From an uncultured Clostridia bacterium (GTDB lineage: Bacteria > Bacillota > Clostridia > TANB77 > CAG-508): a stretch of DNA of 64,000 bases. The position numbers were made by a program, and so were the translations under genes. The stretch spans positions 3,584-67,583 of the forward strand of contig CANRBJ010000002.1 in NCBI GenBank assembly GCA_947628815.1, read 5' to 3'. The notes under the pieces were generated by a model, which had not been told where the DNA came from, did not search any database, and saw nothing but the letters and a program-made list of their open reading frames with translations. Below are positions 1 through 40,398 of the stretch, in pieces. How positions within the stretch are numbered: position 1 is the stretch's first letter; every line of letters starts with the position of its first letter.

Positions 1-237
1 CACTGTATCAAGTTTACTTCCTCTTGCGGATCTCTCTGCGTCAAAAGCCATCACCCGACCTTCATTTTCGTCTATCATATCTAAAATATCTGGAATGATG
101 TCTCCGTATTTTTGAAACACAGGATTCTTGAATGAGAGACCATTACGCTCGAGCAAATATGATGTTTCTACAAGTACAGGGCACGACCTGTCACAGATTG
201 TTTCCATGCAATGTGCTGTAAAGATACAATTATTCAT
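1..237 (-). CDS. Hypothetical Cys-rich protein, N-terminal fragment (gene runs off the left window edge)
   Basis: Minus-strand frame is open from the window edge to ATG at 237-235 (MNNCIFTAHCMETICDRSCPVLVETSYLLERNG...). GAGGAGG RBS (245-251) lies 7 nt upstream. Missing from the ORF track only because it is truncated. Confidence 0.45.
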   Translation of the reverse strand, partial: MNNCIFTAHCMETICDRSCPVLVETSYLLERNGLSFKNPVFQKYGDIIPDILDMIDENEGRVMAFDAERSARGSKLDTV

Positions 238-1420
238 TTGCTAACCTCCTCAGCACAGGATTTCTAGATCGCTTATAATTTACCCTGGACCTAACACATG
301 CGCGAGCAATTCCCACAATATCTGTGTATCCTAAATTTAAGTAATTCTCTATCGGTGCAAACAATGTCAAGTAAGGATCGAGTGTCCCATATAGTTTATA
401 ACGATGTTCTATCCCCTTTACATCTCGCTCTAAGAGGTAACGTCTTACTACATACTCTTTGACAAAATCTTTAGTATACGGAATCACCTTTGATTCAGGT
501 AATGTGTACCATATATCTGACACTTTTTTAAGCTCTCCATTGATTTCAACTGTACTATAAAAACTCTTTAACGTCCCGTCTACCTCTTTCATCAACTTAA
601 ATAAATGAGGATATTTGACAAGGTTGTCAATCAACTGCTCTTCTGTATATCCTTCTATAGGAAGTATCAAACCAAGAACAGAGTTTAACTTGATTCCAGG
701 TACTTGATCGTACATACAAGCAGCTCGGGTTCGGATAAGTACGTTAGGATACAAACCCCGAAGTTCAGCATCCCCAATTATCGACTCCTCTGTAGTCGCC
801 GAAATTTCATTCTGCTTTGTTGGTATCTTAGGAAGACTCGGATATATAGTGTAGAGTATACCATCAATGTAGCCTGAAGCCCAAGGTTTGCTAGTATCAA
901 ATTGTGGAACTGTTGGTGACTGTATGTATAAATCAGATTTTGATGTAGGTGTAATGATTGGTCCTGTATTTGAAGAAACAATCACTTGCCGAATAGGTTG
1001 ATTTTTTGGATCTGGTGGTTGCTTTGATTTAATCACTAATGGCGATTGTTTTTCTGCTACAGATTCATTTGATTTGAATTCAACCGAAACCAGCTGAGAC
1101 CAATCAACTGACCTCTTCTGGATAAACTTGCTGCCTATAGCGGATTGAATAATCTTGTCATCTATATCGCCATACTTAGATGGCAATGACATTGGGTCTT
1201 CAAAATCATCATTCAAATAACTATTTCCTTCGACAAACAGATAAGTGATATAGTTAAATACATGCATCACTGTACTCTTATAATCTTGTGTATTTCTGAA
1301 ACTCTTCATCACTTGGTCAATCAGCTTCCTGTGAGCTAATTCAAGCTCCGAGCCGTGAGGCATCTTCTGATATGCTGATCGCATTACTTCTGTAAGGTTC
1401 AGAAAACTATGCGTAATCAT
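230..1420 (-). CDS. Hypothetical early protein
   Basis: ORF track gives 230..1462. The internal ATG at 1420 has an AAGGAGGTG RBS and abuts the stop (1422) of the upstream gene. No family motif recognised. Confidence 0.6.
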   Translation of the reverse strand: MITHSFLNLTEVMRSAYQKMPHGSELELAHRKLIDQVMKSFRNTQDYKSTVMHVFNYITYLFVEGNSYLNDDFEDPMSLPSKYGDIDDKIIQSAIGSKFIQKRSVDWSQLVSVEFKSNESVAEKQSPLVIKSKQPPDPKNQPIRQVIVSSNTGPIITPTSKSDLYIQSPTVPQFDTSKPWASGYIDGILYTIYPSLPKIPTKQNEISATTEESIIGDAELRGLYPNVLIRTRAACMYDQVPGIKLNSVLGLILPIEGYTEEQLIDNLVKYPHLFKLMKEVDGTLKSFYSTVEINGELKKVSDIWYTLPESKVIPYTKDFVKEYVVRRYLLERDVKGIEHRYKLYGTLDPYLTLFAPIENYLNLGYTDIVGIARACVRSRVNYKRSRNPVLRRLANE

Positions 1421-1421
1421 T

Positions 1422-2339
1422 TTAGATAACACCTCCTTGCAATCTCCATCCCAGATGATCAAACACTTCCGGATGTGTCAAGTAATCCTGATAATAGTCA
1501 AGCGACGATGGATTCAAGTTATCACACATATCATAAACTGATCCATCATTGAGATAAAATTCGTCATCTTCTCTGCAGATTTCGCTCAAACCGAAGCTAA
1601 CAAGCATATCCCAAATAACTGCAGCTTCAAGGGTCGCCTGACTACTCAGCGGACTTCTATTGAACTGATAGATATTAAAAGGGATAGCATATCTATCTCT
1701 TGCCTTAGGGTCACTGCTGATTGAATTTAACCATGTCTGGAATTCTTGCATGAAGACAACCTGTGAACCGTCGTGAAGAGACGCACCATACATCATAACA
1801 ATATCACGAATCCATATAGGGAATCGCTTCATATTGTATTTGAATTTACTATTTGATGCTAATCTCAAAAATCGTGTGTCAAACCATCGCCAAAGTAATC
1901 GTGCACATTCATCTACACAAGCATACCCTGAATCTATCGTTGACAATTTACTAAGACATAGCCTATAATCCCTGAGAATCTGACTGCGGTTTCTATTAGA
2001 ACTTTTTGACTTAGCTTGAGAATTTTCTTCCTGCACCGTGTTGACACCTGCAAACGCTTTAAGTTGATCCAACTGAGTCTGCATTATAGTAAGAACAGAA
2101 TTCAGATCTCCAGAACCCCCTCCGAATTCAGCTCCGTCGTCAACAAGCACCTCATCTTGAAGTATTTCGGCTATGATACTAATAACTTGCCCGCATGTTG
2201 ATGCAACATCCCTTAGTCGATCTTTAGATTTTTCGTATAGATTTGGTCTTGTGTCAGCGAGGTCCTTTACATACTTCAAAAGTTTTTCTGTGTTTCTCTG
2301 TGCACTATAAATATCCAATCGCACTGACACCTCCTTCAT
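1422..2339 (-). CDS. Hypothetical early protein
   Basis: ORF track gives 1422..2360 with a TTG start. ATG at 2339 has a GAGGA RBS and follows the stop of a 15-codon uORF by 1 nt. No family motif recognised. Confidence 0.6.
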   Translation of the reverse strand: MKEVSVRLDIYSAQRNTEKLLKYVKDLADTRPNLYEKSKDRLRDVASTCGQVISIIAEILQDEVLVDDGAEFGGGSGDLNSVLTIMQTQLDQLKAFAGVNTVQEENSQAKSKSSNRNRSQILRDYRLCLSKLSTIDSGYACVDECARLLWRWFDTRFLRLASNSKFKYNMKRFPIWIRDIVMMYGASLHDGSQVVFMQEFQTWLNSISSDPKARDRYAIPFNIYQFNRSPLSSQATLEAAVIWDMLVSFGLSEICREDDEFYLNDGSVYDMCDNLNPSSLDYYQDYLTHPEVFDHLGWRLQGGVI

Positions 2340-6746: not shown

Positions 6747-7370
6747 TTAGTTGCGAATGAGACTATAGAATTCTTTTCTCAAATCGCTGTCGTTTTTGAA
6801 TGAGCCTCTAAGAGTAGCTGTACGAGTTACAGTACCAGGTTTCTTGATACCTCTCATTGTCATACACGCGTGTTCGCCTTCAATGACGACGATGATGTCT
6901 TCTGTGTCTAGTATCCGCTCAAGGACATCTGCGATATCTGAGCCGATTCTCTCCTGAAGCTGTAATCTCTTTGAAACCATATCAGCTACACGGGCAATCT
7001 TGCTCAATCCGATGACCTTACCGTTTGGAATGTAGCCTACGTGGACTCGCATCGAATACATGGTCGCCAGATGATGCTCGCACGTACTGAAGATAGGAAT
7101 GTTGGTTACCGTTACCAGGTCGTCGCTTACATCTTCATCAAAGCAGACGTCGAACATATCTGCGAGTTCTTTGTTGGTGTAGTTCATGCCTTCGAAGATC
7201 TCATCGTACATACGTCTTACTCGATTAGGCGTCTTTACAAGTCCAGGACGATCTGGATCATCTCCGATAGCAAGAATCAAATTGTATATACATTTCTCCA
7301 TGATATCTTCTCTAGTATCTGAGATTTCAACTCTTTTTAATTTAGATCTGTTGTCTTCAAAACAGTTCAT
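6747..7370 (-). CDS. folE: GTP cyclohydrolase I
   Basis: [35 protein letters not shown]...[15 protein letters not shown]...[16 protein letters not shown] are FolE signature segments. Confidence 0.9.
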
Positions 7371-7374
7371 ACTA

Positions 7375-8049
7375 TTACACTCCTCTCATTTCAGGTGGCC
7401 AAATAAACTTGTGCATCTGAAGCTGCATTCGAACATTGTTAAGATTGTTCTTGAGCAAATACTCTACAATTTCTTTCGGCTCGATTTTTTCAAATACAGG
7501 GCTCACGAAATAGGTTGCATTTGTTTGATTGCTCTGGACAATAGTCCGCATCTGGTCAAGGTCCTCGGCAGAGCCTACTACGAATTTCAATACATCTTTT
7601 TCTCTTAGAAAACCTATATTACTGTCGATCATCCTGTTCGACATTCCGCTTGTTTTGCTCTTCCAATCCATTGTAATGATGACATTATCCATAACTGTAT
7701 GAGGTAATTTCCTGTAAAGATCAAGCAAACTGATCGCTCCGTTTGTTTCTATGTTTACAGTTTCTACAGAAGTTTCAGACAGTATTCGTGGTATAAGTTC
7801 ATACACAGATGGATCTAATAGCGGCTCCCCTCCGGTGAGTGTAACTCGTTTGGCCAAGCTGTAATTTTCTTTCAGTAAATTTATGATAAAATCTACTGTA
7901 AGGTCTGTGTAGTCCTTGCCTTCTACTGCATACATTGAATCACAGTATGAACAACGAAGATTACATCCAAATGTCCTTATGAATACTGTAGGATAACCTG
8001 CAGTTATGCCTTCTCCGTCAATGCTCTCGAATATTTCTGATACTTTCAT
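7375..8049 (-). CDS. queE: 7-carboxy-7-deazaguanine synthase (radical SAM)
   Basis: [33 protein letters not shown] is the QueE-type radical-SAM cluster motif. Located within the que operon. Confidence 0.9.
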
Positions 8050-8477
8050 CCTCTTGTACCTCCGAACATCACCTCTTTAAGACCGATTCGTTCTTCTAGC
8101 GAACCTACCTCTGCAGATGCAATGTTTCCGTCAGATTCCTGCACTTCTACTCGATAACAGTAGCAGTTGCGTTTTTTATCTACCGGAAGTAGTGCAATGA
8201 AATATGCAGCCATATTCTCTGCAGTAGGATTGAAGTCATCTCGTCGTAGTTCTCTCTGAAGTACTTCGTTGATGTACTGATGATCAAATCTGTCATGAAT
8301 GTATTTTTTGATTGCTTTGAAGTCAATGACCATTCCGTTTGCATCAAGACGGTCGGATCTAAAGTATACTTTGATATGCCAGTTGTGTCCGTGCAACCTC
8401 TGACAAGGGCTGTCATAGTTTAGACTCAGTTTATGAGAACCTGCTATCTCAAGAGATTTGCAAACTGTATACTGCAT
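8046..8477 (-). CDS. queD: 6-carboxy-5,6,7,8-tetrahydropterin synthase (PTPS family)
   Basis: CQRLHGHNWHIKVYF is the QueD/PTPS zinc motif. There is a 4-nt overlap with queE. Confidence 0.85.
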   Translation of the reverse strand: MQYTVCKSLEIAGSHKLSLNYDSPCQRLHGHNWHIKVYFRSDRLDANGMVIDFKAIKKYIHDRFDHQYINEVLQRELRRDDFNPTAENMAAYFIALLPVDKKRNCYCYRVEVQESDGNIASAEVGSLEERIGLKEVMFGGTRG

Positions 8478-8479
8478 AA

Positions 8480-9181
8480 TTATTCTCCTTTCGTCTGTGC
8501 TGGATCTTCAATTCCATTTGCTGCAAATGCAGCAGCTCGGTCGATGCAAGTTCCGCATGTTCCACAAGGTACATCTCCACCTTCATAGCATGACCAAGTT
8601 AATTCATAAGGAACACCTAACTTGATGCCAGTAGCTACTACAGTTGCCTTATTCATATTTACCAGCGGAGCTTCAACATGAACATTTTTATATGTACCGA
8701 TGTTGATTGCTGTGCTCATTGCATCTGTAAATGCTTGACTACAATCAGCATATGCGTTACCAGCTGCATCATCTGCATGTGCACCGATATAGAGGCTCAC
8801 ATCTTCTTTAGGAAACAGCGACATTGCGAGTGCTGCTGCAGATGATAACATGAGGCCATTTCGGAAAGGAACATATGTGCTGACCATGCCCTCTCCGTCC
8901 TCTGCAATCTGCTCTGCGTAAGACTTGTGTTTGATTTCTTCTGTAGACTGTTTGAGTAGTGAGCAGTTGCTGTATTGCATGATATTTGTCAGATCAAGCA
9001 CATAATGTGCAACTTTGTAATAGTCTGCAACTTTCTGAGCGCAAACAAGCTCCTTGTCGTGCTTCTGACCATATTTGAATGAAACGGTGACAACATTTTC
9101 CGCACCAAACCTATCTACAGCGATACCTACGCAGGTAGTGGAATCAACCCCACCACTGCTCATAACAATAGCTTTTTTCAT
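8480..9181 (-). CDS. queC: 7-cyano-7-deazaguanine (preQ0) synthase
   Basis: PP-loop VMSSGGVDSTTC. C-terminal Zn cluster CYEGGDVPCGTCGTCIDR. ATG at 9181 lies 9 nt after an AAGGAGG RBS. Confidence 0.9.
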   Translation of the reverse strand: MKKAIVMSSGGVDSTTCVGIAVDRFGAENVVTVSFKYGQKHDKELVCAQKVADYYKVAHYVLDLTNIMQYSNCSLLKQSTEEIKHKSYAEQIAEDGEGMVSTYVPFRNGLMLSSAAALAMSLFPKEDVSLYIGAHADDAAGNAYADCSQAFTDAMSTAINIGTYKNVHVEAPLVNMNKATVVATGIKLGVPYELTWSCYEGGDVPCGTCGTCIDRAAAFAANGIEDPAQTKGE

Positions 9182-9195
9182 TTCTAACATCCTCC

Positions 9196-9708
9196 TTACA
9201 TATCATATCTGACAGTCCTATTTGATGCATCTTTGAGCACATCAAGCTGTCTTGATTCTACAAACGATTTGAACTTAGGAAATTTCGGGTTAGCCCAGTT
9301 GGCCATCGGAAAGATAGAGATGCCGCCCCTTGGGCTGAAGATTCCTCGAACTTCAATATATTTTGGATCCATTAGGTTGATGAGATCTTTCATGATGATG
9401 TTAACGCAGTCCTCGTGGAAATCCCCATGGTTGCGGAAGCTGAATAAATACAGCTTTAGAGACTTGCTCTCAACCATTTTTTCATTAGGGATATAGCTGA
9501 TGATAATTTTTGCAAAATCTGGTTGGCCGGTCTTAGGACACAAGCTCGAATATTCATATGCATCAAACGACACTACATAGTCATTGTCCGGGTGCTTGTT
9601 CGTGAAAGTCTCAAGTACTTCCGGAGTATAGTCGTAGTTATACTTGGTGTTTTTGTTTCCAAGAAGCGTAACACCTTCAAGCTCTTTTTTGTTTCTACCT
9701 TCTGCCAT
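9196..9708 (-). CDS. queF: NADPH-dependent 7-cyano-7-deazaguanine reductase (preQ0 to preQ1)
   Basis: [49 protein letters not shown] is the QueF catalytic Cys and QueF motif. ATG at 9708 lies 7 nt after a GGAGGT RBS. Confidence 0.85.
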
Positions 9709-9713
9709 CTTTA

Positions 9714-10403
9714 TTACCTCCAAATGAAATTATGGTTGATCATTTCTCCATTGTCAACAATGATGTCTTCGCCAGTACAACTTTTGTTTATCACAGACAA
9801 GAAGTAAATCCATTCAGCTGCTTCTTCAGCGGACATCCATTTTTTCATAGGGGTTTGATCTATGATGGCCTGCCAGAGATGCTTGTCTTTCATTACTGGG
9901 AGATTGAGTGTTGTTTCTACTCCGCCGAAAGAGAGGCTGTTTACAGTAACTCGTTTTGATGCAAAATATTTCGCTGCCCATACTGTGTAAGCGAGGACTC
10001 CACCTTTGCTTGCGACATACTCAGGAAATTCTGCACCGTTGTGCGCTGATACCGAAGCCAGATTTACAATAGATTTCAGATTGCTGTCATCTTGTATCGC
10101 ATATTTTTCTGTGCAATATATTACACCTTTCAAATTTACATCTATATCAGTACCGATGATGTTATTATCTTTAGGAGTTTGCTGACCTGCGTTGTTGATA
10201 AGAATACTCACCCCCGAAATATCAGGAAGTGTTTCAGGACGCGATACATCTGCAATATGGTGGATGTATTCATCGTGAGCGATCCTGCTCCCCTCGATGT
10301 CAATTCCGTGTACTGTGTAACCTTCTCTGAGGAATTTCTTTGCAGTTTCATATCCGATGCCGTTGGATGATCCAGTCACAACGACAAGTCCTTTAGCATT
10401 CAT
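9714..10403 (-). CDS. Short-chain dehydrogenase/reductase (SDR) family oxidoreductase
   Basis: [12 protein letters not shown] (TGxxxGIG), NNAG, and S...YVASK catalytic motifs. Overlaps yhhQ by 4 nt, and its stop lies between the queF RBS and start. Confidence 0.8.
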
Positions 10404-11146
10404 TGTTTATCCCTCCACCTGAAGTATTGAGATCCAACATTATCACGTTCCCAGGCTTTGTTTGCTTTGTATCCAAGCGGGCTGAAGACAATTTCGCACA
10501 ATAGTTCTGCAGCACATCCTGTAATAGAACAAACGACACACTGTAGCATAGTCCAGCCGAAGAATACATGGCTAACAATAAGTGCAAAAATCATATTATC
10601 AATGAATTGTCCAATCATTGTTGACACATATGACCTGACAGCGAATGCCTTGAAGTTGTTTGTTTTCATCATCTTGCCGATGAATTCATTTAGGAGAGAG
10701 TTGACAATCGCAGATACTAAGAATGCAACAGAGCTGCCAAACAGCACATACCAAGTTCCTGCAAACGTATCATCAAGGGCCTGGTTGACAATGCTGTTTT
10801 CATAAGTATAATACTCCCCCCAGTTACCTGGAACCTTCATGACGAGGAATAGTATCGCACATACCAGCAAGTTGCATCCTAATGCGAAAATCGAGATTTT
10901 GATTGAGGCTTTGGCGCCAAACCGCTTTGTCAACATGTCCATACTCAAGAAGCTGAGCCAACTGACAAAGAAGCCGCAGTCCAAAGTTAACCACGAGATG
11001 GGGATTTCAATTTCTCTGTTAGCAAGCAGGTTCATCAAGATAACAGATACTGTAAACAATGCTACTACCGAAGAAGGCACGTTCCTCATGAGAACTTTGA
11101 AATCTTCAACCTCGCGGTGGATTAGTCCTGTTTTTTGTTTTGACAT
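10400..11146 (-). CDS. yhhQ: YhhQ/DUF165-family queuosine-precursor (preQ0/preQ1) transporter
   Basis: Multi-pass membrane protein. FVSWLSFLSMDMLTKRFGAKAS resembles E. coli YhhQ FSFPFIFLATDLTVRIFGAPLA. First gene of the que operon. Confidence 0.65.
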   Translation of the reverse strand: MSKQKTGLIHREVEDFKVLMRNVPSSVVALFTVSVILMNLLANREIEIPISWLTLDCGFFVSWLSFLSMDMLTKRFGAKASIKISIFALGCNLLVCAILFLVMKVPGNWGEYYTYENSIVNQALDDTFAGTWYVLFGSSVAFLVSAIVNSLLNEFIGKMMKTNNFKAFAVRSYVSTMIGQFIDNMIFALIVSHVFFGWTMLQCVVCSITGCAAELLCEIVFSPLGYKANKAWERDNVGSQYFRWRDKQ

Positions 11147-11149
11147 AAC

Positions 11150-11290
11150 TATGTACCTCCATTATTTTTGTTTTACGAGTGGATGTCAGGATCATTACAA
11201 AACACTCATTCATATGTAAACAGAGTGGATCAAACTCTGTGTTACAACTTATTTTCGCCTTATAATCTTCAATACTAAGTCAAGTAGATC
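11150..11290 (-). promoter_or_regulatory. Structured ~140-nt leader of the yhhQ-que operon (riboswitch-like; class unassigned)
   Basis: On the minus strand, hairpin ACAGAGT/ACTCTGT followed by TTT. A second hairpin, GAGTG/CACTC, is followed by an A-rich tail running into the GGAGG RBS. ATCCACTC occurs twice, which allows alternative pairing. Confidence 0.3.
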
Positions 11291-19016: not shown

Positions 19017-20111
19017 TTATGCTAATGCTAATCGCATACCCTCATTTCTGATATTTATGGCAGCATTTACATCTCGGTTGTGCCGTGTACCGCACTCAGC
19101 ACAAATCCAGTTCCTTATGGACAAGTCCTTTGTTTCGGGATTTTTACAGCCACAAACATTGCAAATTTGACTGCTTGGAAAAAATTTATCAACTTTTATA
19201 AGCTTTTTTCCCGCTTCATCAAGTTTGTATTGCAGAAATGTTGTGAACATACCCCAACCATTATCGCTTACGGATTTGCCGAAGTGTAACGCCCCCGACA
19301 TAGCTTTCATGTCAAGATTTTCAATGCATACACAATCATAGGCATTGGCTATCTGTCTTGATTGCTTATGCAAAAAATCCTTACGCTGATTTGAAACCTT
19401 TTCGTGAAGTTTTGCAACCTTGATGCGCTGCTTATTACGGTTATTTGAATCTTTCTGCATATGAGATAACTTTCGCTGTTCTTTTGCAAGTTTAGCTTCA
19501 GAAAGGCGGTAGTATCTCGGATAATTAGGCTCATTGCCATCACTGTCAACATACAATTCGTGCATAGAAAAATCCAAACCTAAAAAGGAATGTGGTTCTA
19601 TTTGTTGTACTTGGCTTTCATACTCAAACAGAATACTTGCGTAATATTTACCGCTTGGATTTTGACTTACGGTTACAGATTTGAGTATGTAATCATCAGG
19701 TACTTGCCTATGCTGCTTGCACTTAACAAGCCCAATTTTGGGAAGTTTGAGTTGCCCGTTTTTTAGTGAGATATTGCCGTTTACATAATTTGTCGTATAA
19801 CTTCTATGGTTGGACTTTTTAGACTTGAATTTCGGAAAACCGACTTTAGGGTTTCTGAAAAAATTACCGTAAGCAGTTTGTAAATTCATTTGTGCGTTCG
19901 CAAGAGCAAGACTGTCAACTTCCTTTAACCACTCATATCTCGATTTGTACTGTGCCGGAGTGTTATTCAGCTTTTGATTTGTATTTTCATAATGCTTGAT
20001 TTTATCGGCAAGCATTTGGTTGTAGATAAAACGAACACATCCGAAGGTCTTGGCAAGCATTGTGCGTTGTTCTGCATTTGGGTATATTCTGAATTTATAT
20101 GCTTTATTCAA
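19017..20111 (-). CDS. tnpB: TnpB (OrfB) RNA-guided endonuclease of IS200/IS605
   Basis: RuvC residues are intact (GLDFS, CIENLD, NRDVNAAINI). Zinc ribbon CNVCG...CAECG. N-terminus MNKAYKFRIYPNAEQ is typical of TnpB. Confidence 0.9.
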   Translation of the reverse strand: MNKAYKFRIYPNAEQRTMLAKTFGCVRFIYNQMLADKIKHYENTNQKLNNTPAQYKSRYEWLKEVDSLALANAQMNLQTAYGNFFRNPKVGFPKFKSKKSNHRSYTTNYVNGNISLKNGQLKLPKIGLVKCKQHRQVPDDYILKSVTVSQNPSGKYYASILFEYESQVQQIEPHSFLGLDFSMHELYVDSDGNEPNYPRYYRLSEAKLAKEQRKLSHMQKDSNNRNKQRIKVAKLHEKVSNQRKDFLHKQSRQIANAYDCVCIENLDMKAMSGALHFGKSVSDNGWGMFTTFLQYKLDEAGKKLIKVDKFFPSSQICNVCGCKNPETKDLSIRNWICAECGTRHNRDVNAAINIRNEGMRLALA

Positions 20112-20117
20112 TGCTTC

Positions 20118-20510
20118 TCACCTTGACTTTCTATATATTTTTTTTATTACATTTATTGGTGCGCCGCCTGTTGTAAGCAAGCAAAAACTTTGACTCCAAA
20201 AATGTTCTTCCCAAAGTTTTTGTCGAATTGCAGGAAATTCTTTTTTCAAAAGGCGACTGCTTGCACTTTTGTAAGCATTTATGAATTTGCTCAACTCGCT
20301 TTTGGGGTGTGCCTTGAAAAGAATGTGGATATGGTCTTTATCATAATTCCATTCTTGAAGTGTAATATTGTATTTTGGAGCAATGTACTCAAATATTTCT
20401 TTTGCACGATACGAGATATTATCATCGAATACCTTTCGACGATATTTTACGACGAGTACAAGATGATAATACATCAGAAACACTGAATGTGCATTATTAT
20501 CTAATTCCAT
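20118..20510 (-). CDS. tnpA: IS200/IS605 Y1 (HUH) transposase TnpA
   Basis: YHLVLVVKYRRKVF, the HUH motif DKDHIHILF, and a C-terminal tyrosine region (INVIKKIYRK). Confidence 0.85.
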   Translation of the reverse strand: MELDNNAHSVFLMYYHLVLVVKYRRKVFDDNISYRAKEIFEYIAPKYNITLQEWNYDKDHIHILFKAHPKSELSKFINAYKSASSRLLKKEFPAIRQKLWEEHFWSQSFCLLTTGGAPINVIKKIYRKSR

Positions 20511-22436: not shown

Positions 22437-23408
22437 TTAATCAGATACAGGAGATCTTAAATAATTCGGAATCACTGATTTGTAAAGTTCATAAGCTTCA
22501 TCTGCTACTTTTTTCATATCTGGATGAGGTGCTCCGGTAGTACCTTTACTCCTCAAATCAAAGAAATGCTCCCACTGTCGTAAGTTAGCAGTCATAATCA
22601 CTTCAGTCTTCAAAGCATTTGGCAGAACTGCTCTGGCCTGCTGAGGTGTCATATGATAAACGTTTATAAGTTTCATATACGCTTTCTCTGCAGTATTTAA
22701 GCTATCCATGAAAGTATATATCGCTTCAGGTTCCCAAGATGCTAGATTACTGGGATTGATAAATACGATCTCTCCTCCGAATTTATCATCACTATAATTA
22801 CAGTATCTGGTAGATTCTTGTGCAAAACTGCAGCGATGCCTCACTAACTCATGAGATACGCCTCTATCACATATGAAATGGAAGGTTAAGAATTTGTGAT
22901 CCAGATAAATATTCGAAGGATTCATAAACTCTTTCTCTACATCATCTACTATCTGTACATATGTCTTAAAGATTTGAGCATCCTCATCTTCCACCCAGCA
23001 ATCTCCTATTCGGTTCGGATAATAATGTTCAATGAAACAATTCCATAAAACATTTTGGACTAATCTACCCGATATATCTTCCCTAATCAGGTGAGATAAA
23101 CTAACTGTGACATACGCGCCAGTCATACCGCTTGTTGGCTCAGTATATTCATCAAATTCTACATATCTATTAGACAAAGCAAATTGTTTTACGTCATCTA
23201 ACCAATTACACAGGTTGATCTTGAAAGTGACGTTGAAATGCTCTAACATAGCAAAATGCTTACGTTTAATAAGGCCCTTTACAAACTTATATGCACTGTC
23301 TTCGGTTATCTTGTCTTCTGATTTGTAACAAGTTCTCCCAACGACCTCAATATGCTTAAATGGATCTTTTTGTGGAATGATGGAAGCTGCTGAATTAGTC
23401 AATTTCAT
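22437..23408 (-). CDS. thyX: Flavin-dependent thymidylate synthase
   Basis: ThyX motif VSHELVRHRCSFAQESTRY (RHRxxSxxxxSxR). ATG at 23408 (MKLTNS) has an AAGGAG RBS; the track start at 23453 is a TTG. Confidence 0.85.
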   Translation of the reverse strand: MKLTNSAASIIPQKDPFKHIEVVGRTCYKSEDKITEDSAYKFVKGLIKRKHFAMLEHFNVTFKINLCNWLDDVKQFALSNRYVEFDEYTEPTSGMTGAYVTVSLSHLIREDISGRLVQNVLWNCFIEHYYPNRIGDCWVEDEDAQIFKTYVQIVDDVEKEFMNPSNIYLDHKFLTFHFICDRGVSHELVRHRCSFAQESTRYCNYSDDKFGGEIVFINPSNLASWEPEAIYTFMDSLNTAEKAYMKLINVYHMTPQQARAVLPNALKTEVIMTANLRQWEHFFDLRSKGTTGAPHPDMKKVADEAYELYKSVIPNYLRSPVSD

Positions 23409-23710
23409 AAAATTTCTCCTTCTTGTTTTAGTTTCTTTCCGCACATAAGGCAATTATTGATTTTCACAGTCAATCCATTACTACCACTACTGTGTAAATC
23501 ATATCCTTACGCAATTAAATTATTAGGGTATTGAATCGCAATACCTTTGTCATTTGTATCTCCTATTACAAGAGAGTTCCCCATTTCACAAAACGGGCAG
23601 GGATTTTGTCTCTCATTGGCCACCACTTCTTTATTATGTAATATTTATAATATAGGGAGATAAACATATAGCTATGATATTCTATCCCTCTATACTTACT
23701 AGATAGTGAT

Positions 23711-27072: not shown

Positions 27073-27148
27073 TGGTTGGGTCGGTAGGATTCGAACCTAC
27101 GTATGACGGAGTCAAAGTCCGTTGCCTTCACCTCTTGGCAACAACCCA
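27073..27148 (-). tRNA. tRNA-Gln (anticodon UUG), CCA encoded
   Basis: Cloverleaf TGGGTTG-TT-GCCAAGAGGTGAAGGC-A-ACGGA-CTTTGAC-TCCGT-CATAC-GTAGG-TTCGAAT-CCTAC-CGACCCA-A-CCA. Architecture is close to bacterial tRNA-Gln. Confidence 0.85.
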
Positions 27149-27149
27149 A

Positions 27150-28085
27150 TATAGTATAAATGGAATAATATATTACTGAGAACCATTTCCGTTAGGAGGA
27201 TATGGTTCACTTAGAAATCAGATAACCAATCTGCAAAGATACTTCATTCTCAAAGCATCTTTCGTCTTCTCAGCACCTAACTGACTATTCGCTGACCTAT
27301 CCCTACCCTACGCCTAGACATTAAATAAAGGGGTCTGCGTAGCCTTCTTCCTCATCCTGGTTAATTTCTCCTTGAGATAGGATTTATGATAATATGCTTG
27401 AACCTTTGTATAGTTGCATATTATCCGTCTGACTAATTTGGCCTGGAGATTAGCCAGACTATCTTACTTTTTGGTACCAGATAGGTGTCACTAAGTCTCT
27501 TACTTCTTACCATGGTTTCCCTATCTAGGTAAAAGATGTATCATAGCGTATTCATCTTTTACCAGTAACATAAGTTTTTAATGCATATCGATCACGCTAT
27601 CAATCCTCTGCATAGACTTTTGGAATAGGGTTCCTTCCAACAGGAGGAGCCCTTTAAAGTCCTACCCCTCTATGAGTAGTCAACCCATCAAGCTTATAGG
27701 GGTGATTGCTTGGAGTGTCTCTTTGTAGCAAGATACATTCGAAGAACTGGTTGCTTAACCGCCAACCGCGGGGGATAATTTTTGACTATAGGTACATCCC
27801 ATCACTTGTCTTACCTATGACAGACACTGCGCACGAAAGCGTCCCGTCCTACCTTTATCAATCTTTATAGAATTCGATATACGGGTTAGATTGATAGGCA
27901 TAGGACCTCCTTTGTAGAAGCTCGTATATCTAATACTTACGAATTTATCATACATATGCTTGATAGGTCATAATAAAGATATTTTAGAAAACTCTGTTAT
28001 TGATGTTCTAAAATCCTTTCTTGCAGAGCGTGGACTGCAGTTATCAGATGAGAAGACATACGAAGATAAATTCTTTATAGTAAAT
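27150..28085. ncRNA. ORF-free, helix-rich ~0.93 kb segment between two tRNA genes: candidate large structured RNA (strand unresolved)
   Basis: No ORF of 60 aa or more on either strand, and visibly more GC-rich than the flanks. At least 9 helices, for example 27388-27397/27416-27425 (10 bp perfect), 27427-27437/27449-27459, 27475-27485/27520-27531 and 27846-27863/27889-27906 (16 of 18 pairs). Confidence 0.45.
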
Positions 28086-28166
28086 TGCACCGTCGAGGAC
28101 TCGAACCTCGGACTAAAGACTGACTTGATGTAGTCTATTTGCTCTAACCAACTGAGCTAACGGTAC
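28086..28166 (-). tRNA. tRNA-like gene with canonical acceptor, D and T arms but an aberrant anticodon arm (10-nt loop)
   Basis: GTACCGT-TA-GCTC-AGTTGGTTA-GAGC...CGAGG-TTCGAGT-CCTCG-ACGGTGC-A. The 30 nt in between fold only as AGACT/AGTCT around ACATCAAGTC. AGTC is repeated three times. No CCA is encoded. Confidence 0.5.
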
Positions 28167-28188
28167 ATATAAATATCTTTTATTCTTC

Positions 28189-28313: not shown

Positions 28314-28514
28314 TACCGAAATATAAATAAATTAAAATTAAATTCTATTTACTTAGGGTCTAGGTGTCTCCTATCATATCTCTTCACGGAAGATAGTACC
28401 GCCATCTGTTATCGCTATAGTGGCATCGTCTTTGTATCGAAAAGAGTCCGTCTAGTTTTGATCCTATTTATAAGGGTTAGGTGGAAACTAAAATAAAATC
28501 TGTATATCCCTTAG

Positions 28515-28583
28515 TAGAAATTATCAGGATTGAACTGATATCTTTCCTTGTAACAGGAATGCTTTTCTTTAAGCTAAATTTCC
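28515..28583 (-). tRNA. Short tRNA-like gene (69 nt) with a 6-nt anticodon loop and a D-loop lacking GG
   Basis: GGAAATT-TA-GCTT-AAAGAA-AAGC-A-TTCCT-GTTACA-AGGAA-AGAT-ATCAG-TTCAATC-CTGAT-AATTTCT-A. The T arm and acceptor are good, but the anticodon loop is 6 nt (or 8 nt with a 4-bp stem). Confidence 0.4.
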
Positions 28584-37287: not shown

Positions 37288-37671
37288 CTAAGTATGATCA
37301 ATCCGGGGTTCTACACCTTTGTTGTACCAGATCAGTTTAACAGCAATTCTATCAATAATATCATCAAGGTACTCGTAGCACTCTTCATAATTATCTGGAT
37401 CGTATTCAGGTAAGTTAATGATACCGATTTTCTTACCAGCTTTATATACCGTGGCTCCGCAAGGAGAATCTTTCTCTGCCCATGCGTATTCAGCTAAATC
37501 ATATGGATGAATTTCTGAAACTTGACACTGAAAATAGTCTGGATCATCTTCAAACTTTGTGTAAACAGAGAATCTACGCCTCCCGTGTTCATGCACAAAA
37601 GGACCATTATAATTCTTCGTACTAGCCTTCAAATCGATCCTACTTCTTATTATCTTTTTCACCAATTTCAC
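37288..37671 (-). CDS. Hypothetical protein
   Basis: 127-codon ORF on the gene strand. Confidence 0.55.
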   Translation of the reverse strand: MKLVKKIIRSRIDLKASTKNYNGPFVHEHGRRRFSVYTKFEDDPDYFQCQVSEIHPYDLAEYAWAEKDSPCGATVYKAGKKIGIINLPEYDPDNYEECYEYLDDIIDRIAVKLIWYNKGVEPRIDHT

Positions 37672-37912
37672 CCTTTTCTAATTCTTTCCTTAATCTGTTA
37701 TATTCATTGCTATTACATGATTCTTTTATTTCTTTTGCTTTACTATAACAAGTATAACTGCAACAATGCACTACTCTTCCAGCAAATACTAGTTTATATA
37801 TAGAACCAGGAATTTTAATAAATTTCTTTCCACAAATACAACATTCTTTGAAATGAAATGGAGTATAGATTTTTTCTGCCATAATAGTATCCTCATTAAT
37901 TATAATTCTCAT
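37640..37912 (-). CDS. Hypothetical Cys-rich small protein
   Basis: CCICGKKF...VHCCSYTCYSK. An alternative ATG at 37882 has a GAGGA RBS. Confidence 0.5.
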   Translation of the reverse strand: MRIIINEDTIMAEKIYTPFHFKECCICGKKFIKIPGSIYKLVFAGRVVHCCSYTCYSKAKEIKESCNSNEYNRLRKELEKGEIGEKDNKK

Positions 37913-38688: not shown

Positions 38689-39459
38689 TTACAAGTCTGA
38701 TTGATTTATGTATTCTATATCTTCTAATGTAATTAATTTATTAGAAACAATATGTTTGATCCTATCGCAACCTACTTGATACCAATGTGCATCTTTTTCA
38801 ATACATATGAATTTACGATGTGTACGTAAGCAAGCTTCTGCTGTAGTGCATGTACCTGCAAAATTGTCTAATACAGTATCAGAATCATTAGAATGTATAT
38901 TTATCAAATCCATAAATAGTTGTAAAGGTTTTTGTGTGGGGTGACCCAGTCTTTCTTTACCATGTAAAATAGGATAGTTGTATACTCCGATGTTATATTC
39001 TGATTTAAATGTAGGATTACTACCCTTCACCATTGTACAGAAATACTCGCGGGTATTAGAAAGATAATTTAATTTAGAATTTAAAGGTACTGGATTAGTT
39101 TTCTGCCATATACATATTCTATGTTGCTTAAATTTACTAGAGGCCTTTTTAATATCATTCATCTTCCAGATATCATAGAAGAATATTATTGTTCCTCGAG
39201 GTCTAAGTATTCTATAGTATTGTTTAAATAATTCATCTAAATTATTTAATTCAATATCCCAATCACCAAAATATAAAGTAGGTGGTGTAGTGTAATATTT
39301 ACTATTTGTGTCTCTCCAGCTACCTCCTGTAAAATCACTGTCAGATCTAGATATAGCATATGGAGGATCTGTCAATATGAGATCTATACTCTTATCTGGC
39401 AACTTTTGTAATGTTGATTCCCCGTCACCGAATATAAATTTAGATTTATCTAATTTCAT
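38689..39459 (-). CDS. DNA methyltransferase (beta-class N6-adenine or N4-cytosine)
   Basis: Motif IV LILTDPPYAI near the N-terminus and motif I LDNFAGTCTTAEAC near the C-terminus. Confidence 0.8.
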   Translation of the reverse strand: MKLDKSKFIFGDGESTLQKLPDKSIDLILTDPPYAISRSDSDFTGGSWRDTNSKYYTTPPTLYFGDWDIELNNLDELFKQYYRILRPRGTIIFFYDIWKMNDIKKASSKFKQHRICIWQKTNPVPLNSKLNYLSNTREYFCTMVKGSNPTFKSEYNIGVYNYPILHGKERLGHPTQKPLQLFMDLINIHSNDSDTVLDNFAGTCTTAEACLRTHRKFICIEKDAHWYQVGCDRIKHIVSNKLITLEDIEYINQSDL

Positions 39460-39498: not shown

Positions 39499-40398
39499 TT
39501 AATAATTTGTAATTGCTAATTGATCAGCAAATTGAATCAGATGTACAAGCGGATAGATTCTATTCGCTTGCTGAAGCTCGTTCACTTCAGAATCAACAGT
39601 ATTCCATCTGCCCATGTGGTATCTGATAGCACAACATTCTTCCATCGAAAGATTGAAAAATTTCATCGCAAGATACATCGAAGATACCCCATGTCCGAGA
39701 CAGATTGCCCTGTCCTCTACATACTTATAAGATTTAATCTGTGTCCACTGACCGTTTTCGTCTTTGACATTTCTCATGTAGCTGTCGTAAAGTCCGATTT
39801 TGCACCAATCATGAACAAGCGCTGCAAGCACTACTGACGAAATGTTCTTTACAGTAGATTTGAATGGTTCTGCATGCATTAAGTCAATGGCTTTATTGAG
39901 TACTCGAAGTGTGTGATAGAAAAGCCCACCTTCATAACTGTCATGATACTTTGTTGATGCAGGGCAGGTGTAGAAATCTGTAGAAGCGATCCAGTCAAGA
40001 ATCTTTTTCGCCTTTGGTACGAATTCATCAGGATTGGCTCTCTTCTCCTTCGCTCTGATAAGTGCGATGCCTAAGATGCACATCTCATAGAATTCTACTG
40101 CACCTTGGTGTTGTTCGTCCCACTTGCTGCCTACGAAGTATTCAGGCCTCTCCTTATACATCAGAAAATCTCTTGCGATATCATTAAATAAGTCAATGAC
40201 CTCAGGATCAAGATCAAACCGCTTCGCAGATTCTTCTGTTGGTTCAATAGGACAACCATCTCCTACTGTTTCATGAATAGTGCATAAAACTTCTCCAGTT
40301 TTGATGTTAGTGACATCGAATAGCTCAGGTGTTTTTCGTGTGAACCAATATGTGAATTCATCGAATCTAGAAAACGGCTTTGTCATTGTCTCTGACAT
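39499..40398 (-). CDS. HD-domain phosphohydrolase (YhaM-like HD module)
   Basis: KYHDSYEGGLFYHTLRV...LAALVHDWCKIG...GHGVSS fits an HD-superfamily metal-binding pattern. Confidence 0.6.
   Translation of the reverse strand: MSETMTKPFSRFDEFTYWFTRKTPELFDVTNIKTGEVLCTIHETVGDGCPIEPTEESAKRFDLDPEVIDLFNDIARDFLMYKERPEYFVGSKWDEQHQGAVEFYEMCILGIALIRAKEKRANPDEFVPKAKKILDWIASTDFYTCPASTKYHDSYEGGLFYHTLRVLNKAIDLMHAEPFKSTVKNISSVVLAALVHDWCKIGLYDSYMRNVKDENGQWTQIKSYKYVEDRAICLGHGVSSMYLAMKFFNLSMEECCAIRYHMGRWNTVDSEVNELQQANRIYPLVHLIQFADQLAITNY

Follow-up and report, generated by a model that had tools for sequence, protein, structure and literature searches.

A transporter and a short-chain dehydrogenase paired in the preQ1 operon of a gut phage: a probable salvage route beside de novo synthesis

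The 64,000-nt stretch of phage DNA analyzed here (the window) carries on its minus strand an operon in which a complete set of genes for the 7-deazaguanine base preQ1 (7-aminomethyl-7-deazaguanine) is preceded by genes for a membrane transporter and for a dehydrogenase/reductase of the short-chain type (SDR). FolE, QueD, QueE and QueC convert GTP to preQ0, and QueF converts preQ0 to preQ1; the question raised by this locus is what the two additional genes contribute, and where the product of the operon is used. The reading that we favor, with a probability of roughly 55%, is that the operon fills the preQ1 pool of the infected cell by a de novo route and a salvage route under the control of its leader, and that the product is used by the DNA-modifying transglycosylase DpdA. 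The transporter and the SDR probably constitute the salvage route that feeds this pool.

Seven intact minus-strand open reading frames (ORFs) occupy positions 6747-11146, and each matches its own family in Pfam or NCBIfam. In the order of transcription, and together with the elements that bound them, they are:

11210-11144, minus strand: structured 5' leader of 67 nt, candidate preQ1-I-like translational riboswitch (alignment A6, model R1)
11146-10400, minus strand: Vut_1/YhhQ-like membrane transporter (COG1738, QPTR family), 248 aa, first gene (PF02592, E 4.4e-24)
10403-9714, minus strand: classical SDR, 229 aa (PF13561/PF00106)
9708-9196, minus strand: QueF, unimodular NADPH-dependent preQ0 reductase, 170 aa (TIGR03139, 163.3 bits against a cut-off of 86.9)
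9190-8480, minus strand: QueC, 7-cyano-7-deazaguanine (preQ0) synthase (PF06508, E 1.5e-56; TIGR00364, 171.6 bits against a cut-off of 150.3)
8477-8046, minus strand: QueD, 6-carboxytetrahydropterin synthase of the PTPS family (PF01242, E 2e-27)
8049-7375, minus strand: QueE, radical-SAM 7-carboxy-7-deazaguanine synthase of the Clostridial type (TIGR03963, full-length alignment)
7370-6747, minus strand: FolE, GTP cyclohydrolase I (PF01227, E 6.6e-66; NF006826, 238.9 bits against a cut-off of 162)
6728-6695, minus strand: intrinsic-terminator-like hairpin with a 14-bp stem containing 6 G-C pairs, followed by TTATTTGG, 19 nt past the folE stop

The set required for preQ0 synthesis (FolE, QueD, QueE and QueC) is complete and its motifs are intact: CQRLHGH in QueD, CNLRCSYC in QueE, CEHH in FolE and, as read from the translation, the Cys cluster CYEGGDVPCGTCGTC in QueC. 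QueF likewise retains its catalytic Cys context CPKTGQPD and the QueF motif ESKSLKLY (pattern E(S/L)K(S/A)hK(L/Y)(Y/F/W)). QueD scored 82.5 bits with TIGR03367, slightly under the cut-off of 89.25, and carries the CxxxHGH motif; QueE scored 243 bits with TIGR03963, under the cut-off of 260. These identities support the suggestion, made in an earlier note on this DNA, that the cluster supplies a 7-deazaguanine, namely preQ1.

The junctions between the genes are, in gene order, -4, +5, +5, +2, -4 and +4 nt. The 4-nt overlaps that the note had described are thus present at the Vut_1/SDR (ATGA) and QueD/QueE junctions only, the other four being gaps of 2-5 nt. On the other hand, its observation that the SDR stop codon lies between the ribosome-binding site and the start of queF was correct: the TAA (9716-9714) sits between GGAGG and the queF ATG at 9708. 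This ATG, with GGAGG 8 nt upstream, matches the public 170-aa gene call; the TTG at 9723, listed as the queF start in a mechanical ORF list, was rejected because the ATG agrees with that call. The terminator-like hairpin falls in a 70-nt gap before an RNase H gene. The seven genes form one transcription unit, running from the leader at 11210-11144 to the terminator at 6728-6695, and the minus-strand operon proposed from the sequence is borne out by coordinates, family matches and motifs. The gap of 420 nt that follows the preceding gene contains a further hairpin (ACAGAGU...ACUCUGU, 11222-11245, minus strand), placed just upstream of the leader. This hairpin may end transcription of the upstream unit, giving the operon its own promoter.

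The genomic surroundings of the SDR were compared in 9 bacterial and 79 viral loci, whose genes were typed with the proteins of the window. Pairing was counted over 64 loci, that is, the window and 63 loci of the close SDR family, many of them near-duplicates. A Vut_1 gene was present at the same locus and on the same strand as the SDR in 56 of the 64, in most cases directly upstream of it, and the two genes often overlap by 4 nt. The bacterial loci showed the Vut_1-SDR arrangement in eight cases out of nine (metagenome-assembled genomes, MAGs, of Eubacteriales, Erysipelotrichaceae, Clostridiaceae, Bacilli and Mollicutes). The neighbours of the bacterial pair were unrelated genes, encoding a nucleotidyltransferase, an AAA ATPase and a protein of DNA-alkylation repair; neither tgt nor queA was found among them.

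In phages the pair was found in three unrelated contexts, and many loci had no que genes nearby. Group A comprises myoviruses like that of the window; QueF and the SDR share an operon in the window phage and in about 13 relatives, and four members (L017, L019, L021 and L026) keep the pair with no que cassette in the stretch examined. In Group B (L040-L049, IMG/VR contigs of about 42-45 kb) the pair lies in the replication module with a DpdN-like formyltransferase and with a DpdA3 that shares 48% identity with that of Flavobacterium phage immuto_2-6A; no FolE, QueC, QueD, QueE or QueF was found in the 20 kb examined (within 10 kb of the pair). The presence of DpdA3, the formyltransferase and Vut_1-SDR with no que genes seen suggests that Group B phages have formyl-dPreQ1 DNA built from a salvaged base (examples at L043:12994-13827 and L040:16109-16738). 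Group C has the order PolA-Vut1-(DpdA1)-SDR, after which come genes for a GNAT acetyltransferase, DpdA and DnaN. A GNAT acetyltransferase gene also stands directly upstream of DpdA1 in Vut_1-carrying phages with or without the SDR (L031:10730-11290, L110:5483-5956 and L119:5526-6002). By analogy with the formylation by DpdN and the methylation by DpdM, the Group C enzyme could acetylate the preQ1 amine; no acetylated preQ1 derivative is described in the literature searched.

The conserved partner of the SDR is thus the transporter and not QueF, and the contact between the SDR and queF in the window reflects the placement of the que cassette. The earlier note had coupled the SDR to queF, which is not sustained, as both bacteria and two further phage groups have the Vut_1-SDR pair with no que genes alongside. 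Its remark that the SDR belongs to no described 7-deazaguanine pathway holds for the literature searched. In that literature, from which most subscription papers fall outside, we found no description of a Vut_1-SDR pair or of an SDR linked to YhhQ or to queuine.

The SDR belongs to a tight family (55-84% identity in alignment A1) of more than 100 close members with uninformative names. The motifs TGxxxGxG and NNAG and the residues Ser119, Tyr129 and Lys133 are invariant across A1, as is Asp35 at the end of strand beta2. An Asp at this position marks the NAD(H)-preferring SDRs in the established classification; Asp35 therefore points to a preference for NAD(H), which suits an oxidative role. 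The AlphaFold model of the protein (pLDDT 88) matches SDR structures over the Rossmann fold with a TM score of 0.8, and its best neighbours in the PDB are generic (<=28% identity): an uncharacterised Pseudomonas aeruginosa SDR (4avy), FabG, and sugar/polyol dehydrogenases. The transporter aligns with the Vut_1 domain over its full length (PF02592, 86 bits, profile positions 1-150 of 152). In a rough neighbour-joining tree the SDR-linked Vut_1 proteins form a branch apart from the SDR-less phage Vut_1 proteins encoded beside DpdA. The suggestion that a phage-borne importer points to salvage is supported.

The leader provides a second line of evidence. Its first stem, P1, is formed by GAGUG (11207-11203) and CACUC (11181-11177), which enclose the loop UUUUGUAAUGAUCCUGACAUC; an A-rich tail then reaches the Shine-Dalgarno sequence GGAGG (11160-11156), followed by the Vut_1 ATG at 11146. 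The structure is conserved across Group A, with the loop consensus UUUUGUAA...CCUGAcAuC. In the 12-sequence alignment A6 all five P1 pairs are 100% paired and compensatory changes occur in four of the five; the alignment also shows an invariant CC and the A-rich tail. The proposed second stem, P2, between UCCU of the loop and AGGA of the Shine-Dalgarno sequence, is poorly supported, with only 65% pairing in A6.

A covariance model (R1) built from the leader was run over about 2.2 Mb of loci. It scored the window leader at 79.8 bits, and matches at E <= 0.01 were found only directly upstream of Vut_1 or queF genes. Eight relatives have a second copy of the leader between the SDR and QueF genes, indicating that the pair and the QueF cassette are two units under the same control element. 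In phage Dp-1 (HQ268735) the motif lies at L094:75-133 (R1 42 bits), between the annotated promoter and queF, and reads AGCAG UUUUGUAAACCUGACAUC CUGCU ... AAAGGAGG; the record annotates only the promoter and a ribosome-binding site in this place. Related leaders, with one compensatory change in P1, precede the bacterial Vut1-SDR operons.

At gathering thresholds the Rfam models detected no riboswitch in either the window or the bacterial loci, and sensitive scans of two loci (L008 and L012) found nothing. The preQ1-I model RF00522, with a gathering score of 39 bits, gave sub-threshold matches of 30.1 bits in a phage (L030) and 23.5 bits in an Eubacteriales MAG (L006). Both are located before Vut_1, and both are simpler, canonical-looking copies of the leader. 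Control of yhhQ genes by preQ1 riboswitches is known (Zallot et al. 2017, PMC5372724), and the elements of the leader are arranged as in a preQ1-I riboswitch (PMC8752633 and PMC11625349); the literature searched holds no relevant report of a preQ1 riboswitch in Dp-1 or in other phages. The leader is a putative preQ1-I-like riboswitch, presumably with a ligand of the preQ1 type. A leader motif that is missed by the current Rfam models and marks both the transporter-SDR pair and phage queF operons appears to be new.

The enzyme that probably uses the product was found outside the window. Within it, no gene for DpdA or tRNA-guanine transglycosylase (TGT) was detected, either by Pfam analysis of the 32 largest ORFs or by six-frame hidden Markov model searches with profiles of DpdA1 (alignment A2) and of DpdA3, the latter built from Group B, immuto and CP220 proteins. 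A weak profile match at 37291-37677 (13.9 bits, 45 residues) proved spurious once its alignment was inspected. The gene is missing from the window because the window ends about 18 kb short of it. Contig L263 (ENA ERZ27249363 NODE_163) overlaps window positions 1-1838 at 100% identity and is the same contig. It encodes a 319-aa DpdA (L263:19530-20489), the gene lying left of window position 1 at a distance of about 17.7-18.7 kb; the protein scored 312 bits with the DpdA1 profile and shares 38% identity (E 1e-55) with DpdA from phage Dp-1. The earlier statement that no DpdA or TGT is visible therefore stands for the window and falls for the genome, a profile search beyond the window, as had been proposed, having revealed a Dp-1-type DpdA on the same contig.

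The contig was reached through its PolA protein (P0241). A single-protein PolA query to IMG/VR returned no close relatives; an aligned PolA query did find them. In L263 the DpdA gene follows that of the small clamp-loader subunit, and it occupies the same place in about 15 related phage contigs; in these relatives it lies about 9 kb past the DNA polymerase gene. Three related contigs (L023/L189, L034/L188 and L025/L187) carry both DpdA and the Vut1-SDR-QueF...FolE operon. In other phages, an unannotated protein encoded beside the SDR (alignment A2) is 42% identical to Dp-1 DpdA and also matches the '7-deazaguanosine inserting enzyme' of Queuovirinae. The DNA of phage Dp-1 contains dPreQ1 (Hutinet et al. 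2019, PMC6884629). With a DpdA on the same contig and the gene order of Dp-1 in the operon, modification of DNA is a well supported reading, and one of a known kind: the window phage most likely has a Dp-1-like system that puts preQ1 into its DNA, and this part of the locus is a further member of the known Dp-1-like preQ1 systems, not a new one.

Other DpdA candidates were discarded. The DpdA P0130 was rejected as that of the window phage since it belongs to another phage, whose PolA is split by a GIY-YIG gene and not by an intein, and two unannotated L176 proteins of 305 aa and 256 aa, whose genes lie close to PolA, were rejected as they have no Pfam or PDB match; the 256-aa protein resembles a zinc-finger single-strand-binding protein with an acidic tail.

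The region of L263 around DpdA and the polymerase shows other features. A dGTP_diPhyd_N (PF18909) protein, which may reduce the pool of dGTP, is encoded directly after DpdA (L263:20504-21013); phages immuto_2-6A and Flasso also have an annotated nucleoside triphosphate pyrophosphohydrolase in the vicinity of DpdA. Another, divergent PTPS/QueD paralogue of 139 aa (L263:7113-7532, PF01242 E 2e-12) lies between the primase and polymerase genes; in Cellulophaga phage phiST the QueD paralogue DpdL has been proposed to decarboxylate 7-carboxy-7-deazaguanine (CDG) (PMC10516641). The PolA gene itself (L263:10001-12316, about 8-10 kb left of the window) is divided between two ORFs, an N-terminal one of 521 aa and one of 771 aa, the latter with an intein-like insertion (CVNCVDAETEILTEDG...), and in a related phage a GIY-YIG gene splits the polymerase.

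A two-route mechanism can be proposed for the operon. In the first route FolE, QueD, QueE and QueC would make preQ0 from GTP and QueF would reduce it to preQ1. In the second, the Vut_1 transporter would import a 7-deazaguanine precursor and the dedicated NAD-type SDR, translationally coupled to the transporter, would make the import usable, either as preQ1 or as a direct precursor of it. A pseudoknot in the leader would bury the Shine-Dalgarno sequence and shut the operon when the product is plentiful, and the Dp-1-type DpdA would swap guanine in the phage DNA for preQ1 (dPreQ1), guarding the DNA from restriction. The occurrence of the pair alone in bacteria, behind a preQ1-I-like leader, argues for a function in preQ1 supply and not in the decoration of phage DNA.

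A candidate reaction for the SDR is the NAD+-dependent oxidation of the allylic 4-hydroxyl in the cyclopentenediol of queuine. The oxidised queuine would be a beta-amino ketone, which would eliminate preQ1, and the SDR would then act as a non-radical-SAM counterpart of the queuine lyase QueL. This proposal is reasonable on chemical grounds and fits the NAD-type site, the gut habitat, the repressive leader and a gap that the field itself regards as an open question: many bacteria possess QueK together with a preQ1-type TGT but have no QueL (PMC12632869). In its full form, with the pair as an unrecognised two-gene system, in gut Firmicutes and in their phages, that salvages queuine (or a queuosine breakdown product), releases preQ1 in place of QueL and is controlled by a new long-loop variant of preQ1-I, the proposal is possible but doubtful.

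Several observations weigh against the two-route reading. Characterised YhhQ proteins take up preQ0 or preQ1 (in some pathogens, queuine) and do so without requiring a partner enzyme. In the set of loci with DpdA1, 20 of the 28 that carry Vut_1 have no SDR; with so many DpdA-adjacent phage Vut_1 genes lacking it, the SDR is an optional extra. Its nearest solved relatives, generic as they are, do not point to a substrate. The transporter scored 43.3 bits with TIGR00697 ('queuosine precursor transporter'), under the cut-off of 50.95, and is thus a divergent member of the YhhQ/QPTR group whose predicted queuosine-precursor substrate is supported by its context (que genes and leader) and not by the score. 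RF00522 gave no match to the window leader (searched in 11130-11270) even at E <= 10. Finally, the figure of 56 out of 64 counts loci and not independent events, and the absences of que genes cover flanks of 6-10 kb only.

Five other explanations were considered, all of them less likely than the two-route supply of preQ1. The one that survives best, although unlikely, is that the SDR acts after preQ1, or on dPreQ1 in DNA, to make a new 7-deazaguanine derivative for phage DNA, an idea already put forward in the earlier note. Phages are known to decorate dPreQ1 with methyl (DpdM) or formyl (DpdN) groups (PMC10516641), 26 of the 54 viral SDR loci have a DpdA (DpdA1 or DpdA3) within 10 kb, and in three loci (L055, L059 and L061) DpdA lies between Vut_1 and the SDR. 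The constant neighbour of the SDR is nevertheless the transporter, and not DpdA or QueF; in bacterial chromosomes the pair stands by itself, with no DpdA within 8 kb, behind preQ1-I-like leaders of a type that normally represses genes raising preQ1 and not genes consuming it. Moreover, preQ1 offers an alcohol/ketone oxidoreductase no obvious substrate. The derivative idea is therefore not supported.

It is clearly unlikely that the SDR is an analogue of QueF, reducing imported preQ0 to preQ1 in phages and bacteria without queF. The distribution in Groups B and C agrees with such a role, as these phages have Vut_1, SDR and DpdA, most of them have no queF in the stretch examined, and they encode a formyltransferase or a GNAT acetyltransferase, enzymes that would both depend on the preQ1 amine. 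Against it, the window phage and its roughly 13 relatives carry QueF and the SDR together, and Asp35 points to NAD, whereas QueF uses NADPH. To our knowledge the four-electron reduction of a nitrile is confined to the T-fold enzyme QueF and has no precedent among SDRs.

We regard as very unlikely the explanation that the operon serves host tRNA, providing more preQ1 for the host TGT and hence more queuosine-tRNA, with the DNA left unmodified. preQ1 is the substrate of bacterial TGT, and bacteria use the same transporter-SDR pair, presumably for tRNA. But the genome encodes a DpdA related to that of Dp-1, whose DNA carries dPreQ1, a dGTP-diphosphohydrolase-like gene adjoins it, and DpdA is the signature protein encoded by every phage shown to carry 7-deazaguanines (PMC10516641). 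Nor is there a queuosine-accepting GUN tRNA among the three tRNAs of the window (Gln, Val and one with an odd loop). Use of preQ1 in tRNA and use in DNA are not mutually exclusive.

That the SDR is an unrelated passenger, a moron or auxiliary metabolic gene riding with the transporter, is highly improbable. SDRs are common and versatile, and the gene occurs without a nearby Vut_1 in a few loci (L007, L028, L032, L033, L035, L060 and L064); yet the two genes remain neighbours in hosts that differ at the level of phyla and in three lineages of phages, at SDR identities down to about 40%, the 4-nt overlap and the shared leader are retained, and the SDR-linked transporters form their own branch. 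The pterin branch suggested in the earlier note, in which the SDR with FolE and the PTPS-family QueD would make a tetrahydropterin in the manner of sepiapterin reductase or FolM, can hardly be right and was already disfavoured: the operon does encode each of the three kinds of enzyme used to make tetrahydrobiopterin (an SDR, FolE and a member of the PTPS family), but FolE and PTPS are both absent from the stretch examined in about 40 of the 64 SDR loci, against 56 with Vut_1, leaving no consistent genomic link, QueD carries the QueD motif CxxxHGH, Asp35 takes the place of the basic residues of the NADPH-dependent sepiapterin reductase, PTR1 and FolM, and none of these three is among the best 60 sequence matches or, in the structural comparison that the note had proposed, the best 50 fold matches in the PDB.

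With the two-route supply of preQ1 as the preferred reading, the remainder of the window describes the phage in which the operon resides. Nearly all genes lie on one strand, and they include those for a Gp23-type capsid protein, a prohead protease, a GH25 lysin, a DNA ligase, helicases, ThyX, a tmRNA and three tRNAs. The phage, which comes from a rabbit gut metagenome and is known from metagenome contigs only, is a large T4-like myovirus with a Gp23-type capsid and a contig of at least 127 kb, the length of the longest contig carrying its proteins. A megablast search of the operon DNA against 50,697 phage records gave no match, and in a tblastn search of phages the SDR gave only matches of <=33% identity, mostly to contaminating bacterial SDRs in draft 'phage' records. 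Other features of the window are:

22437-23453, minus strand: ThyX-type thymidylate synthase
27073-27148, minus strand: tRNA-Gln(UUG)
28085-28167, minus strand: tRNA-Val(UAC)
28514-28583, minus strand: tRNA-like gene with an odd anticodon loop
29004-29448, minus strand: full-length tmRNA (RF00023, 82 bits)
38689-39459, minus strand: N6/N4 DNA methyltransferase
39499-40398, minus strand: HD-domain protein

Given the N6/N4 methyltransferase, the genome may carry DNA methylation alongside the 7-deazaguanine. An IS605-type TnpB (OrfB_IS605, with a Cas12f-like TNB domain) is inserted amid tail or structural genes at 19017-20111 on the minus strand, and a Y1 transposase ORF (20118-20510) lies just upstream of it. 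For the ORF at 230-1462 the recorded protein is the 396-aa version, the version with the longest start having no record.

A dedicated oxidoreductase tied to a queuosine-precursor transporter, in organisms ranging from Erysipelotrichaceae and Mollicutes MAGs to three phage lineages, appears to be new. Should the pair convert imported queuine to preQ1, this would account for the use of QueK-released queuine by bacteria that have a preQ1-type TGT and no QueL (PMC12632869). It would also mean that phages can modify their DNA from a scavenged host or dietary micronutrient instead of GTP, and the pair would be an annotation marker for 7-deazaguanine DNA in phages without que genes.

The locus can be compared with five known systems. 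Phage immuto (PMC10516641) bears on the Group B relatives and not on the window phage: in both, DpdA3 (48% identity) precedes a formyltransferase gene, after which comes PolA, but in Group B FolE-QueF were not seen in the 20 kb examined and Vut_1 and the SDR form part of the module. The leader shares with the type I preQ1-I riboswitch a P1 of 5-6 bp, UU after its 5' strand, C (often UC) before its 3' strand, an A-rich tail into the Shine-Dalgarno sequence, and downstream que genes and COG1738. It differs from type I in a loop that is 8-9 nt longer (UUUUGUAA...CCUGAcAuC) and in the missing 'CUA' platform.

Queuine salvage (Yuan et al. 2019, as reviewed in PMC12632869) consists of the QueK hydrolase and the radical-SAM queuine lyase QueL, which gives preQ1. 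The proposed route resembles it in the import of a queuosine-derived compound, its conversion to preQ1 and the linkage to a queuosine-precursor transporter. Unlike QueL, the SDR is NAD-type and non-homologous, with neither the radical-SAM fold nor the CxxxCxxC cluster, the likeness being a functional hypothesis. With the YhhQ/QPTR transporters under preQ1 riboswitch control (PMC5372724) the window transporter has in common the Pfam family, the link to que genes and a preQ1-type leader, but it scores under the equivalog cut-off, shares its operon with a dedicated SDR and falls, with the other SDR-linked members, on a separate branch; an SDR as second gene of a yhhQ operon controlled by a preQ1 riboswitch is not mentioned in the literature searched.

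The closest counterpart is the module of phage Dp-1, QueF-QueC-QueD-QueE-FolE-QueT-DpdA, with which the window shares the identical order QueF-QueC-QueD-QueE-FolE. The two phages are also alike in the subfamily of DpdA, in encoding a precursor importer and in the leader motif, which in Dp-1 stands before queF. In contrast to Dp-1, the window phage is a large T4-like myovirus, its DpdA gene lies outside the operon, following the clamp-loader gene in the replication module about 27 kb downstream, and its importer is Vut_1/COG1738 instead of QueT, encoded first instead of last and with the SDR attached.

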